A stretch of 64,000 nt of DNA from a plasmid. Made by a program: the position numbers and the translations under genes. Shown in pieces: positions 2,255-7,230 of this stretch. The number at the start of each line of letters is the position of its first letter. Position 1 is the first letter of the stretch. The stretch lies in the NCBI RefSeq assembly GCF_054482595.1, contig NZ_JBTHVH010000001.1. One strand, given 5' to 3'. The notes below the pieces were generated by a model, which saw only the letters and a program-made list of their open reading frames with translations, had not been told where the DNA came from and made no database searches.

Positions 2255-2476
2255 ATGGTTAATGCCAATCCTTGCGCACGCCAAGAATTCATCTGGCGTT
2301 TCTATTCCTGCAAAAAACACCACTATCACTTCGTCATCGCAGCAACAGAAGACGAAGCACGCTCTCAATTGCCTGATGGCCCCTGCATTTTTACTGCCCG
2401 TTTTTCAACTAACTCGCGCAATTCACTTAGTTACTGGAACCTCCCCTTCTCTTCCGACGTTCAGGGGGTTTTATGA
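2255..2476 (+). CDS. icd: Icd (cell-division inhibitor, leader ORF of ant)
   Basis: 73 aa. RBS GAGG is immediately preceded by the c4 target ATTGTG. ATGA overlap with ant. Confidence 0.85.
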   Translation: MVNANPCARQEFIWRFYSCKKHHYHFVIAATEDEARSQLPDGPCIFTARFSTNSRNSLSYWNLPFSSDVQGVL

Positions 2477-3516
2477 AAAAACCTCTCGTCACCCGTAATG
2501 ACATAGCCGAAGCGATCGCACTGCATACTGCCTGTATGCCGACACGGGAGATCCCCGGCGCAATTGCCAACTATTTCATGATAACCAGACGTTTTTATAC
2601 CCGAACAGATAAGGCTGTGATCAACAGGCTACTGATAGCCGAGATCAGGGATTATTTGATTGAACAAGGACGTCTACGTTACGCAACGGTGGCAGCAGAA
2701 ATGAGAAAGGAGGCACATAGAATGACCAGTAATAATTTGAATGTTAAAAAACCAGCATCTGTTGCTTCAGCTACGCCATCACCAGCTGTGAATGTTATCT
2801 CCAACACTGGAGACACAATCGACAGCCAGACGCTGTTAAAGATGGTCAATGAAGCGCGTAAGTTATGTGGGGAACCAGAGGTTCGGAACAACAAATTCAT
2901 CAAAAAAATACTCGACGAATTAGAAGGTGAGGACGGTTACACAAAAAGTGCAACCGTGCCGCCAGGTGGCGGTACGCCTATGGTTGTCATAACCATGACC
3001 TACAAACAAGCCCTGCGAGTCGCCGCGCGCGAGTCAAAAGCAGTCCGCCGTTCGCTGATCGACAAACTGGAAGAATTGCAGCAGGCAAACTCCCCTGCCC
3101 CATCGATCCCCCAAACATTACCAGACGCTCTACGCCTGGCTGCCGAGTTGGCAGAACAGAAAATGCAGTTGGAACAACAGCTGGTGGCCGCAGCCCCTAA
3201 AGTCGATTTTGCCGACCGGGTATCAGCGGCTAATGGAATCCTGATCGGGAACTTTGCAAAGGTCGTTGGACTTAAGCAAAACGCCCTTTTCTCATGGTTG
3301 CGCCAGAACGGCATTCTCATGGCTTTTGGTGCGCGCAAAAACGTACCGCGCCAGCAGTACATTAACGCCGGGTATTTCACGGTGAAAGAAGTGGTGCTGG
3401 ATGATGAAAATGGCTACCAGATACGGCTGACGCCCCAATTAACGGGTAAAGGCCAGCAGTGGTTAACTCGCAAGCTACTTGATGCTGGTTTGTTAAAACC
3501 AGTAGCAATAGGTTAA
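2473..3516 (+). CDS. ant1: antirepressor Ant, module 1
   Basis: 347 aa. Central Rha-like segment and C-terminal KilAC-type domain (LPDALRLAAELAEQK...APKVDFADRV...GNFAKV) shared with KilA and the other two Ant copies. Confidence 0.85.
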   Translation: MKKPLVTRNDIAEAIALHTACMPTREIPGAIANYFMITRRFYTRTDKAVINRLLIAEIRDYLIEQGRLRYATVAAEMRKEAHRMTSNNLNVKKPASVASATPSPAVNVISNTGDTIDSQTLLKMVNEARKLCGEPEVRNNKFIKKILDELEGEDGYTKSATVPPGGGTPMVVITMTYKQALRVAARESKAVRRSLIDKLEELQQANSPAPSIPQTLPDALRLAAELAEQKMQLEQQLVAAAPKVDFADRVSAANGILIGNFAKVVGLKQNALFSWLRQNGILMAFGARKNVPRQQYINAGYFTVKEVVLDDENGYQIRLTPQLTGKGQQWLTRKLLDAGLLKPVAIG

Positions 3517-3593
3517 CAAAAGAAAAAACCTGCCAGCAAACTGGCAGGTTTCTGAGCAGATCGACCAACCCGATCTGGATCGAGTCAGAAAAA

Positions 3594-3610
3594 TTTGCTC
3601 TAATAAATTT
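3594..3610 (+). promoter_or_regulatory. C1 operator (Op53-like) controlling kilA-repL
   Basis: TTTGCTCTAATAAATTT, 16/17. Confidence 0.8.
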
Positions 3611-3679
3611 CGTTTTCTAAGTGCAAAGAATCACCATTTCGAGCTGGTGATTGAAGGTTGATGCAAATTTGGAGAAAAA

Positions 3680-4480
3680 ATGCAACAAACATTCAATGCG
3701 GATATGAATATATCAAACCTTCATCAAAATGTCGATCCTTCAACCACTCTGCCCGTTATTTGTGGTGTTGAAATTACGACCGACCGCGCTGGCCGTTACA
3801 ACCTTAATGCTCTACACAGAGCGAGCGGACTCGGTGCCCATAAAGCGCCAGCTCAATGGCTAAGAACGCTGTCAGCTAAACAGCTCATCGAAGAGCTTGA
3901 AAAAGAAACTATGCAGAATTGCATAGTTTCGTTCGAAGGCCGTGGCGGCGGCACTTTTGCCCATGAATTGCTCGCAGTGGAGTACGCTGGTTGGATTTCT
4001 CCCGCGTTTCGGCTGAAGGTAAACCAGACATTTATCGACTATCGAGCCGGAAGATTACAACCTGCTATTCCGCAGAGTCTCCCTGAAGCTCTCCGTTTGG
4101 CTGCCGACCTGGCAGAGCAAAAGCAACGGCTGGAACAAAAAATGCTTATGGATGCACCTAAAGTCGAATTCGCCGAACGCGTTGCTACCGCCAGCGGGGT
4201 TCTAATCGGCAACTATGCCAAAGTGCTCGGTCTGGGCCAAAACTATCTCTTCACCTGGTTGCGTGATAACGGAATTCTGATCGCAACCGGTGAACGCAGG
4301 AACGTCCCCAAACAAGAATACATATCCCGTGGGTATTTCACCCTTAAAGAAACCGTGATCGATACAAGCAATGGAAGCAGGATTTCTTTCACGACTCGTA
4401 TAACCGGCAAAGGTCAGCAGTGGCTGATGAAGCGATTGCTTGATACTGGTGTGCTGGTACCTGTCGCGGCAACGCGCTAA
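3680..4480 (+). CDS. kilA: KilA
   Basis: 266 aa. KilA-N-like N-terminus plus KilAC C-terminus. P1 synteny. Confidence 0.85.
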   Translation: MQQTFNADMNISNLHQNVDPSTTLPVICGVEITTDRAGRYNLNALHRASGLGAHKAPAQWLRTLSAKQLIEELEKETMQNCIVSFEGRGGGTFAHELLAVEYAGWISPAFRLKVNQTFIDYRAGRLQPAIPQSLPEALRLAADLAEQKQRLEQKMLMDAPKVEFAERVATASGVLIGNYAKVLGLGQNYLFTWLRDNGILIATGERRNVPKQEYISRGYFTLKETVIDTSNGSRISFTTRITGKGQQWLMKRLLDTGVLVPVAATR

Positions 4481-5355: not shown

Positions 5356-5523
5356 TGAATTGTTCTAATTATAACCATGCATACTTTCAACGCCTCTAGT
5401 TTGCCATGAGGCAAACTCATAGGCGTCCTGGTAAGAGGGCACTGTTGCCAAAACTGGACGTCCCATTATTGCAATTAATAAACAACTAACGGACAATTCT
5501 ACCTAACAATAAGTGGAGTTAAC

Positions 5524-6228
5524 ATGTTGAACCGAAGAACATTTAATGTATTCTGCGATGAATCCTGTCACCTACTAAATGATCATAATAAAGTCATGGT
5601 ATTGGGTGCGCTTTGGTGCCCTGGCACTATCACAAAAAAAATTGCTAGAGACATCAAGGAATTAAAATTAAAACACAATCTAAAACCTGATTTCGAAATC
5701 AAGTGGACTAAAGTATCTGCGTCCAAGGTTGAATTTTACTTAGATGTCGTAGATTACTTCTTCAGCAACCCAGCATTGCGCTTTAGAGGTGTTGTTGTTC
5801 CTGATAAAGAGCAACTGGACCATGCTCGATTCCATCAAGATCATAATACTTTCTATTATAAGATGTTTTTTTATGTCTTAAAAAACATAATAGAAAGTAA
5901 CAACACATACAATATCTACCTAGATATAAAAGATACTTTAGGTATTGAAAAAATTGAGAAATTAAGAGGAGTTCTTCACAATGATCGCTATGATTACAAT
6001 CATGAGTCGATAAACAGAATTCAACATATACGATCTCATGAAGTGCAACAATTGCAGCTAACGGATCTTTTCATTGGTGCGTTAGGCTACGTTCATCGAG
6101 GAATGAATAGCAACGCGGGAAAAATCCAAGTCATAAACAGGATAAAATCACATACAAACAGGGATTTACTAAAAAGCACTCTTCCAACAGAAAGTAAATT
6201 TAATATTTTCGTGTGGGAGGCTCGCTGA
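5524..6228 (+). CDS. DUF3800-like protein (positional equivalent of P1 rlfA)
   Basis: N-terminal FCDESCH, mid IKWTKV, C-terminal LQLTDLFIGALGY; this resembles the DUF3800 pattern from memory. Roughly 35% GC by eye. Confidence 0.6.
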   Translation: MLNRRTFNVFCDESCHLLNDHNKVMVLGALWCPGTITKKIARDIKELKLKHNLKPDFEIKWTKVSASKVEFYLDVVDYFFSNPALRFRGVVVPDKEQLDHARFHQDHNTFYYKMFFYVLKNIIESNNTYNIYLDIKDTLGIEKIEKLRGVLHNDRYDYNHESINRIQHIRSHEVQQLQLTDLFIGALGYVHRGMNSNAGKIQVINRIKSHTNRDLLKSTLPTESKFNIFVWEAR

Positions 6229-6692
6229 TGCTTCAAATGCCAGATTTATTGTACTTCAATGGAAGTTGGCAAGAGTATATAGACGATGTATATTATGTTG
6301 TCAGAGAAGACATTTTAATCTCTAATATAACGTTTAAGGGTCTCCCTGTTCGGTTACGTTATTCACCGGAATATGATGGGAAAGAGTTCGGATTTTGGCA
6401 TTTAGTATCAGAGGGAAAAATAGAAGAAGAACGAATACCTGATCTTGAACGGTGTAAGCGGATCCGCTGGATCGCGCATATGATAAGGAATTATAACCAT
6501 TCCGATATATCATGTTGGTCTGAAAGACGAGGACCAACTGAAGAATGGGTAATCTGGAACGAGTGTGAAAACTACGTTGTTGTGCTATCCGCACGTAGAG
6601 ACTATTGGCTTCTTAAAACAGCCTATGTTGTAACCTATAACAGTAAAATCAGAACACTCAAACAAAGCAGAAAAAGAGCGCTTGGGACATAA
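6228..6692 (+). CDS. hypothetical protein translationally coupled to the DUF3800-like gene (positional equivalent of rlfB)
   Basis: TGATG stop/start overlap at 6226-6230 with GGGAGG 8 nt upstream. 154 aa, no recognisable motif. Confidence 0.6.
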   Translation: MLQMPDLLYFNGSWQEYIDDVYYVVREDILISNITFKGLPVRLRYSPEYDGKEFGFWHLVSEGKIEEERIPDLERCKRIRWIAHMIRNYNHSDISCWSERRGPTEEWVIWNECENYVVVLSARRDYWLLKTAYVVTYNSKIRTLKQSRKRALGT

Positions 6693-6699
6693 AAAAGCT

Positions 6700-6731
6700 G
6701 AACCCGACACATATTGCTATGTATCGGGTTC
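6700..6731. terminator. 13-bp stem hairpin between convergent genes
   Basis: GAACCCGACACAT/ATGTATCGGGTTC with one mismatch, flanked by an A-run (5') and a T-poor tail. Confidence 0.5.
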
Positions 6732-6858
6732 GATCGCTCTTTCTACACATGGTAGATGAGTAAGGCAAATCTAACCGATCTACTTTAGCTTTTCAATAGC
6801 TAGCTATAACTTTCCGCACATATTCTTCTGATAATTCCAGTATGGCTGTTGGGTTTTC

Positions 6859-7155
6859 TTATGCTTTTCTGCGCAGAGGTGCACATTTATTCAGCAACAA
6901 TAAATGTAATTCTTTGTTATTCCTAAGTATTTCGACACACCAATATCGTAACGTGTTCACTTCAAGTGTAGCCAGCACCTTATGTCGAAGTCCTCCCTCC
7001 CCTGCACATAACGATGACTGACATTCTGCTAAGGCACATAACCATGTATTGGCATCATAGAGAATCCAATAATGCTCCTCTGAAATAGTTTTGCATCCAA
7101 TTATTTCGAATCTTCGTTCTATCGTTTCAGGAGAGTATGAAAAATCAATTTCCAT
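6859..7155 (-). CDS. hypothetical 98-aa protein, AT-rich (positional equivalent of pmgF)
   Basis: ORF only. Separated from the structural operon by the terminator at 7206-7230. Confidence 0.45.
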   Translation of the reverse strand: MEIDFSYSPETIERRFEIIGCKTISEEHYWILYDANTWLCALAECQSSLCAGEGGLRHKVLATLEVNTLRYWCVEILRNNKELHLLLLNKCAPLRRKA

Positions 7156-7205
7156 AATATGCTCAAAATTTCGCTATACCAGCATAATTTAAGCACAAAA
7201 AAAGC

Positions 7206-7230
7206 TCCCGCAGGAGCTTTAAAATACAAG
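7206..7230 (-). terminator. rho-independent terminator ending the 23-22-21 structural operon
   Basis: AAAGCTCC-CGCA-GGAGCTTT, followed on the minus strand by T7. Confidence 0.75.

Follow-up and report, generated by a model that had tools for sequence, protein, structure and literature searches.

A conserved small RNA gene beside rlfA-rlfB suggests a three-part candidate defence module among the exchangeable cargo of P1-like phage-plasmids

The cassette that follows repL in P1-like phage-plasmids was analyzed in a 64,000-nucleotide stretch of plasmid DNA (the window; contig NZ_JBTHVH010000001.1 of NCBI RefSeq assembly GCF_054482595.1). There it holds rlfA (5524-6228, plus strand), encoding a 234-amino acid DUF3800 protein, rlfB (6228-6692, plus strand), encoding its 154-amino acid partner, and pmgF (6859-7155, minus strand), a convergent open reading frame (ORF) of 98 codons that the earlier note on this DNA, made from its letters, had already seen. 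Our comparisons suggest that a small RNA (sRNA) gene of about 71 nucleotides (nt), 5'-ACUCAUCUACCAUGUGUAGAAAGAGCGAUCGAACCCGAUACAUAGCAAUAUGUGUCGGGUUCAGCUUUUUU-3', running 6761→6691 on the minus strand, is an obligatory third part of the RlfAB module, which corresponds to candidate system PDC-M04 of the PADLOC database; as far as we compared, this is new. We take the module to be a horizontally mobile, self-contained, three-part optional cargo of P1. On balance, we favor a role for it in phage-host or plasmid conflict, as PDC-M04-type defence, abortive infection or a toxin-antitoxin (TA)-like system, and not in P1 lytic replication.

A small RNA gene 3' of rlfB

Relatives of RlfB were gathered from 411 species-representative genomes, and the 80 best were examined. 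In 79 of these loci, RlfB was immediately preceded by an RlfA homologue in the same orientation, and the remaining one was cut by a contig end. The loci included Proteobacteria, Planctomycetota, Nitrospirota, Saccharibacteria, Gracilibacteria, Chloroflexota, Cyanobacteria, Bacteroidota, Verrucomicrobiota-type lineages and Elusimicrobia, with the RlfA-RlfB pair strictly conserved over more than 10 phyla. The roughly 70 nt after rlfB were conserved as DNA in unrelated enterobacterial contexts, and a version of the sRNA was recognizable 3' of RlfB in essentially every locus for which the region was available, across phyla. On the strand opposite rlfB, its consensus reads NCUCAUCUACC-AUGU-GUAGAAGGAGCAUNCGAAGCCGYCC-loop-GGGCGGCUUCAGCYUUUU.

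In the window, the predicted sRNA consists of a 5' hairpin (6760-6737), a terminator hairpin with a 14-bp stem (6731-6700) and a U-tail (6696-6691) that runs into the rlfB stop codon, all on the minus strand. The earlier note had taken the hairpin at 6700-6731 for a separator between the gene pair and the convergent ORF; the hairpin is indeed present, but it has its T-run on the minus strand and forms the terminator of the conserved sRNA gene, and is thus more than a separator. A consensus scan placed the sRNA promoter at 6768-6796 on the minus strand, with a -35 element TTGAAA (6796-6791), a 17-nt spacer and a -10 element TAGATT (6773-6768). The best -35/-10 pair stood at the same distance in 63 of about 80 loci, its -10 element ending 7-10 nt before CUCAUC.

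The sRNA sequences were taken by anchor-based extraction, and RNAalifold was run on 69 distinct ones. The resulting structure comprised a 5' hairpin with an internal loop, a second hairpin and then a U-run, with compensatory changes on both sides in 15 of 19 pairs. Paired cells amounted to 96.2%, compared with 82.5% in column shuffles (0 of 500 reached the observed value) and 36-48% when the partners were slid. Read on the minus strand, the alignment held 126 G.U cells against about 11 A.C cells, an excess that fixes the strand of the sRNA. A covariance model built from this alignment (R1) gave a single match each in the 64-kb window (6761→6679, 72 bits, E 1.5e-16) and in reference P1, recovered every locus held out of its seed, and had no match in the P1-like plasmids that carry alternative cargo in the same slot. 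The 5' hairpin (GCUCA...GAGC) also bears a likeness to a tRNA D-arm, which is an eye-level impression only.

The sRNA is without annotation in the reference P1 record, in the matches from P1-like and other phages, and in the E. coli RefSeq matches listed (25 of 121); likewise, the published annotation of P1 shows no RNA gene in the interval from rlfB to pmgF. Searches against Rfam 15 matched no family to the sRNA, whether in the window (E<=10), in 20 loci scored against the gathering thresholds or in 9 loci searched with a limit of E<=5, while the same scans did detect DUF3800-VII and -VIII RNAs elsewhere. The DUF3800 RNA families met in these scans were I (RF02969), VII (RF02967), VIII (RF03075) and IX (RF02968), none of which matches the sRNA. 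Its core was present in 119 E. coli genomes, about as many as rlfAB (120), the totals and not the genome lists being compared, and among E. coli sequences only rlfAB-carrying replicons matched, with no sequence relative in the core genome. Eleven unrelated structured RNAs (DUF3800-I to -XI) have been described next to DUF3800 genes, several of them with 3' terminators and in either orientation (PMC5737381). As a structured small RNA beside a DUF3800 gene, ending in an intrinsic terminator, the sRNA behaves as a further predicted member of this set, although it matches no Rfam 15 model; the comparison covers the motifs held in Rfam.

Its convergent layout, with the U-tail over the rlfB stop codon, was first read as that of a cis-antisense regulator of the rlfAB 3' end. 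This candidate was rejected because the sRNA is co-directional with the pair in viral locus L095, where it has its own promoter, and because most viral copies occur without the genes; an obligatory cis-antisense action is thus unlikely. We also hold it to be highly improbable that the element is no RNA gene at all, but a bidirectional terminator combined with a conserved DNA site (for recombination or as a cassette boundary), or a 3' untranslated region element of rlfAB. Such an account would suit its place at the end of the operon, the A-run and U-rich stretch that flank the hairpin, and its position near the module edge in different mobile contexts. It is opposed by the excess of G.U over A.C cells on the minus strand and by the fixed-distance promoter pair on that strand in most loci, and also by the separate promoter of the co-directional element in L095. 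Furthermore, the orphan copies described below share the orientation of the nearby tRNA genes in 93 of 94 cases, and the 5' hairpin covaries and is conserved far past what a terminator needs.

Several loci depart from the common layout. Two tandem sRNA copies follow one RlfB homologue in an alphaproteobacterial metagenome-assembled genome (L074, 10442-10592, minus strand), and in about nine loci (L009, L036, L041, L053, L054, L061, L074, L091 and L092) the 5' hairpin loop holds an additional insertion, as judged by eye. RlfB is split by a frameshift in a Methylomonas locus (L006, 10684-11178) and in another Methylococcaceae locus (L016), and RlfA is split in L017, L064 and L086, the sRNA being intact in each case; such splits may be a sign that one component is decaying or being selected against.

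An exchangeable cassette between repL and bplB

The assignment of this slot to P1 rlfA/rlfB/pmgF in the earlier note agrees with the P1 annotation and with a DNA identity of 96.5% between the window and P1, the same genes being named rapA-rapB-upf52.1 in P7. The cassette lies between repL and bplB, as in P1 and P7, and differs from them by few substitutions, with protein identities to reference P1 of 99.6% for RlfA, 97.4% for RlfB and 92.9% for PmgF. Positions 5524-6800 were 100% identical to E. coli plasmid NZ_AP026785.1, so that the window comes from a P1-like phage-plasmid. The AT-richness noticed at 5524-6692 is real: the GC content is 0.366 there and 0.375 over the whole cassette (5370-7195), compared with 0.477 in the left flank and 0.507 in the right flank.

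A query from repL to pmgG matched 710 plasmid records, 98 of which carried the cassette. About 450 of the 710 keep both flanks (an estimate from a spread sample of the ranking), most with other cargo, such that about 1 in 5 P1-like plasmids with both flanks carries the cassette. On the left, alignment with the alternative-cargo plasmids showed homology ending after ...CTCTAAT, for a breakpoint near 5370 that falls inside the C1 operator Op55 or immediately past it; the right breakpoint is near 7195, just ahead of the bplB terminator. This intrinsic terminator after bplB (7201-7220, with its T-run on the minus strand) is the one that the earlier note had drawn at 7206-7230, between the convergent ORF and the structural operon; it exists, but at slightly different coordinates and as part of the conserved P1 backbone, outside the cassette. 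Between the same breakpoints, other records (among them L010, L011 and L012) hold an 81-amino acid ORF with hokD, the 81-amino acid ORF with a 198-amino acid minus-strand ORF, or, in E. albertii, an Ail/Lom porin with the 198-amino acid ORF. The slot thus has at least 4 alleles including rlfAB-sRNA-pmgF, the hokD allele being the commonest, and some records show IS421 or TnpB insertions. Among complete E. coli genomes, the cassette was present in 120 of 5426, at 122 plasmid and 5 chromosomal places. That the three genes form a variable, low-GC stretch in P1-like elements had been published before (PMC9603915, PMC6906374), and these comparisons indicate that the cassette is a swappable accessory module and not a P1 replication function, in keeping with the earlier suggestion of an acquired, exchangeable cassette.

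In contrast to what that suggestion implied, pmgF lies inside the variable cassette but is no member of the conserved RlfAB-sRNA module. The N-terminal 65 amino acids of PmgF are 42% identical to the 198-amino acid protein that stands in the same position beside other cargo (L011, 1825-2421, minus strand), and this likeness marks pmgF as a separate variable gene outside the rlfAB unit; it was absent from the non-P1 RlfAB loci examined. From its sequence, PmgF looks like a short allele of the longer protein. PmgF matched phrog_7349 in a PHROG search, PHROG 7522 also matches the part shared by the two proteins, and neither protein had a match in Pfam or PADLOC. Transcription of pmgF leads into the sRNA region, and the sRNA terminator is common to both.

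Upstream of the pair, the position of the C1 repressor operator was carried over from the P1 annotation (the equivalent of Orlf/Op55, ATTGTTCTAATTATAAC, 5359-5375, plus strand); the window differs from P1 there by a single mismatch (C->T). Downstream of this operator and ahead of the predicted rlfA promoter comes a perfect 8-bp inverted repeat, AGTTTGCC-ATGA-GGCAAACT (5398-5417). P1 shares this repeat with the window, while rlfA homologues in other contexts lack it on their 5' side; it may be a P1-specific regulatory site or a remnant of a repL-operon terminator. The sigma-70 promoter PrlfA predicted in the P1 record (TTGCAA-17-GACAAT, 5469-5497, plus strand) is kept in the window. As noted earlier from the letters alone, the rlfB start codon (6228) falls inside TGATG, overlapping rlfA by 1 nt, behind a Shine-Dalgarno sequence GGGAGG (6215-6220) located 7 nt upstream, which points to translational coupling. 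Farther upstream (2473-4480), the KilAC (ANT) antirepressor domain is found in ant1/ant2 and in kilA, the latter with KilA-N in addition, as in the ordinary immI/kilA-repL region of P1.

The published annotation of P1 describes rlfA/B as 'possibly associated with lytic replication'. Along these lines, an RNase H-like RlfA together with RlfB would help P1 lytic replication from oriL by acting on R-loops or primers that arise from transcription through repL, a proposal that we regard as very unlikely. The place of the cassette directly after repL/oriL and a C1 operator, its early co-induction with repL, the suitability of an RNase H fold for transcription-primed origins and the PHROG label of RlfB as a 'replication protein' all fit this proposal. 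However, rlfA, rlfB and pmgF are all non-essential for P1 lytic growth (PMC10695390), and most P1-like plasmids that keep repL do so without the cassette. Moreover, the pair and its sRNA occur in Type I restriction-modification (R-M) operons and beside integrases in many phyla, none of these contexts being of P1 type, and the 'replication' labels are positional.

RlfA, RlfB and their genomic neighborhoods

The resemblance of RlfA to DUF3800 proteins, recognized before by eye, was borne out by Pfam (PF12686, 54.1 bits against a cut-off of 21, E 3.6e-14, profile positions 1-148 of 149), and RlfA carries an N-terminal CDES motif (D12-E13) and a C-terminal QxxD motif (Q178-L-T-D181). In published descriptions, DUF3800 proteins are nucleases of the RNase H fold that carry DE and QxxD motifs (PMC7736814, PMC10910872, PMC13594972). 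In an alignment of 35 homologues from several phyla, D12, E13, D134, D137, Q178 and D181 were invariant. The structure model of RlfA has an RNase H2/H3-like fold in which D12/E13 stand at the end of strand 1, D134/D137 after strand 127-133 and D181 in helix 175-191, and these acidic residues would superpose on the RNase H DEDD site. The statement in the earlier note that no catalytic motif was recognizable therefore does not hold, given the RNase H2-like predicted fold and its invariant residues. We firmly assign RlfA, from its model, as a predicted RNase H2/H3-like metal-dependent nuclease, with cleavage of RNA/DNA hybrids as a putative activity. Long ORFs in L054 and L074 that resembled RlfA fusions were set aside as probable ORF-calling artefacts in high-GC DNA.

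RlfB had no sequence relative in Pfam, NCBIfam or the PDB, and by sequence it is a new family, with about 1767 clusters when grouped at 50% identity. Among its 150 best-scoring members, almost all are stand-alone proteins of about 150-190 amino acids. Its structure model is confident (predicted local distance difference test score of 91.6), and its best structural neighbor, by a weak likeness that is not significant, is the colicin D tRNase. A BECR-type RNase core of the RelE/ParE/colicin D class is thus a tentative lead for RlfB, in which the invariant residues H58, R69, D72, R75 and R78 are candidate catalytic residues only. The labels 'oxidoreductase' (NCBI) and 'replication protein' (PHROG 16230, RefSeq P1) found no support in any of the domain or fold searches run.

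Both proteins matched the component hidden Markov models of PDC-M04 in PADLOC-DB v2, a database whose models, by its description, cover known as well as candidate defence systems. RlfA matched PDC-M04A (E 1.2e-95) and RlfB matched PDC-M04B (E 2.5e-51), from adjacent and co-oriented genes with their 1-nt overlap. As far as we saw, PDC-M04 is defined by its proteins alone, the sRNA not being part of the definition.

Neighboring genes were next clustered without bias and annotated with Pfam for 85 loci. Type I R-M genes occurred within 10 kb in 41 of the 85, usually in the order hsdM-hsdS-A-B-hsdR or hsdR-hsdM-hsdS-A-B (where A-B is the RlfA-RlfB pair), and the other recurrent neighbors were Fic, TIR-FGE, YhcG nuclease, MmeI, RhuM and integrases. 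For example, the pair lies between hsdS and hsdR in Methylomonas, and it is accompanied in Algoriphagus (L008) by hsdMS and a reverse transcriptase (RT; RVT_1) on one side and by hsdR and a prokaryotic Argonaute (pAgo) on the other. It directly follows the integrase of a lambdoid prophage in Enterobacter and those of genomic islands in Burkholderia and E. coli, the E. coli island also holding a NACHT NTPase, and it occupies a moron-like position of a lambdoid prophage in Serratia. Homologues are therefore by no means confined to P1 replication contexts; such confinement is what the earlier note had said would speak against its proposal of defence or addiction. Taken together, the PADLOC matches and the R-M and integrase contexts make a defence or addiction role the best-supported reading of RlfAB at the level of sequence.

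These neighborhoods also bear on a narrower version of that reading, in which the module would serve purely for plasmid or island addiction (post-segregational killing) with an RNA antitoxin and no anti-phage role, which we consider unlikely. The same slot holds hokD in most P1-like plasmids, the sRNA looks labile and has its own promoter beside a protein with a possible toxin fold, and the module is found at the edges of integrative elements, all of which would suit addiction. Nevertheless, its embedding in chromosomal Type I R-M operons and its pAgo, RT, TIR and MmeI neighbors point to defence islands and not to replicon maintenance. P1 already has phd-doc, and addiction is hard to square with orphan sRNAs in lytic-type phages with tRNA arrays. 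Addiction and anti-phage roles are not mutually exclusive.

Orphan RNAs in phages and a possible mechanism

Viral contigs were scanned for the 24-nt core of the sRNA, which gave at least 120 loci, with RlfA/B nearby in 26 and absent in 94. The covariance model confirmed the sRNA in 20 of the 20 viral loci tested (19 orphans and L095, which has RlfA/RlfB). The full two-hairpin form was present in most of these, while copies in tRNA arrays had the second hairpin shortened or replaced. A tRNA gene lay within 1 kb in 44 of the 94 orphan loci, and 93 of the 94 such tRNAs were on the sRNA strand. Rfam searches around the orphans revealed tRNA arrays, ROOL RNA and abiF RNA: ROOL (RF03087, 283-312 bits) and long tRNA arrays lie a few kb from the orphan in L124, L127 and L131, and abiF RNA (RF03085) about 140 nt upstream of it in L108. 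Furthermore, orphans stand about 50-120 nt from Rfam DUF3800-VIII or -VII RNAs in phi3T/SPbeta-like and other phages (L215, L120, L099), suggesting that phages appear to carry small arrays of DUF3800-type RNAs. In phi3T (L215, KY030782 at about 49,000; 3503-3688), the sRNA and then the DUF3800-VIII RNA precede yonK, with no annotated or recognizable DUF3800 gene within 3.5 kb of the sRNA. Cultured phages with an orphan sRNA include Bacillus phi3T and SPbeta-like phages, Vibrio 1.084.O (beside a tRNA gene), Rhizobium jumbo phages, and Geobacillus, Mammaliicoccus and Streptococcus phages. The distribution of these predicted orphans in phage tRNA arrays and beside other DUF3800-type RNAs is, as far as our comparison extends, also new.

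The viral copies might be taken to mean that the module serves phage counter-defence or host takeover, with early RlfAB and sRNA neutralizing host defences, by degrading RNA or DNA signals or protecting tRNAs, and with the chromosomal copies being domesticated or prophage remnants. Early lytic expression behind a C1 operator fits this idea, as do the spread of the RNA in phages beside tRNA genes, which are known counter-defence cargo, and its presence without the proteins in cultured lytic and temperate phages. Yet the protein pair is found mostly in non-phage chromosomal contexts, co-oriented within R-M operons, it matches the PADLOC candidate defence models, and the proteins accompany only 26 of the at least 120 viral RNA loci. 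We consider counter-defence unlikely as the function of the module.

Under the conflict role that we favor, a specific mechanism can be proposed, although only tentatively. A constitutive sRNA would bind RlfA-RlfB and hold both inactive, as an RNA antitoxin or a pseudo-substrate. Infection or loss of the element would upset the balance between sRNA and proteins, and the freed nucleases would turn on RNA, our preferred target being tRNA or some other RNA that is universally conserved. For phages with a lone sRNA among their tRNA genes, that copy would serve as a decoy. The 26-nt 5' hairpin is near-invariant across phyla while RlfB falls to about 40% identity, which suggests that the hairpin is constrained beyond a single protein partner and favors mimicry of a conserved cellular RNA. 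hokD, the commonest alternative cargo of the slot, is also an RNA-controlled toxin and was counted for the RNA-controlled reading, and the colicin D tRNase as the best neighbor of RlfB was counted toward the tRNA lead, its Foldseek match not being significant. In its broadest and more doubtful form, the proposal would make the ~70-nt RNA a universal antidote, or structural pseudo-substrate, for a widespread family of DUF3800 nuclease defences that attack tRNA or another conserved RNA, captured by phages as an anti-defence decoy.

Several observations weigh against these proposals. The name PDC-M04 was not found mentioned in the papers searched, and the system is a candidate. Foldseek with the RlfB model returned no significant match, so that the evidence for its fold is weak. 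Nothing in the E. coli core genome resembles the sRNA core in sequence, and any mimicry would therefore have to be structural, while the orphan phage copies could reflect an sRNA with a phage function of its own. Finally, rlfA/B are induced early in lytic infection along with repL (bioRxiv 10.64898/2025.12.28.696737), and this early induction and the C1 operator upstream suit a function in the lytic phase at least as well as protection of the lysogen. The genes themselves, their variability and low GC content, the candidate-defence models and the general link between DUF3800 and structured RNAs were already known. The structural reading of RlfA (firm) and that of RlfB (tentative), both from predicted models, are new as far as we compared.

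In Type III TA and abortive infection systems such as ToxIN, a protein nuclease is held by a dedicated small RNA, and phage PhiTE escapes through a pseudo-ToxI. ToxIN and PhiTE thus provide a working analogy for the orphan sRNAs as a phage-carried antidote. The ToxIN RNA, however, is a tandem-repeat RNA upstream of its toxin, whereas the RNA in the window is a single hairpin-plus-terminator unit downstream of the pair (with two copies only in L074). Neither Pfam nor PADLOC revealed a ToxN-like protein, and with two proteins of other folds the module does not belong to the Type III TA systems. Another parallel is PrrC, an anticodon nuclease encoded within the Type I R-M locus EcoprrI. An RNA-directed effector lies there between hsdS and hsdR, a position that the pair shares in about 40% of the RlfAB homologue loci, and the weak best fold match of RlfB is a tRNase. 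In contrast to PrrC, RlfAB has no ABC-ATPase or HEPN-type domain, the P1 and prophage modules stand without Type I R-M genes, and a tRNA target is hypothetical.

In defence loci, DUF3800 RNase H-like proteins also stand beside non-coding RNA systems, namely, retron type VII, the TPR-DUF3800 proteins of Cas12a2/Cas12a3 and type VI-F CRISPR (PMC7736814, PMC10910872, PMC12669027, PMC13594972). The RlfAB cassette differs from these in having no RT, TPR or cas genes, and RlfA keeps the QxxD motif that is missing from the retron VII proteins. It is no type VII retron, given that no RT is found in this region of the window and that RVT_1 adjoins the pair only in Algoriphagus. It does not fit a Type I TA system with a 3'-overlapping antisense RNA either, given the co-directional sRNA of L095 and the occurrence of the RNA without the genes in phages. 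Judged by size and fold, RlfA (234 amino acids) and RlfB (154 amino acids), with predicted globular folds, are also unlike the small membrane peptide toxins of such systems.

P1 is a classic model phage, and for twenty years rlfA and rlfB have stood under a positional 'replication-linked' label. The present analysis treats them instead as one of the alleles at a cargo hotspot and places them in the phylum-spanning candidate defence family PDC-M04, and it flags the public annotations of RlfB as likely mis-annotations. DUF3800 genes have been linked since 2017 with many unrelated structured RNAs, with no hypothesis as to the reason. A tractable example in P1 and E. coli, together with an orphan RNA in the B. 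subtilis phage phi3T, makes this DUF3800-RNA question directly testable. If the proposed mechanism is true, it may give a function to the DUF3800 RNA motifs and to P1 rlfAB, and may reveal a new form of RNA-controlled nuclease immunity along with a matching phage decoy strategy.

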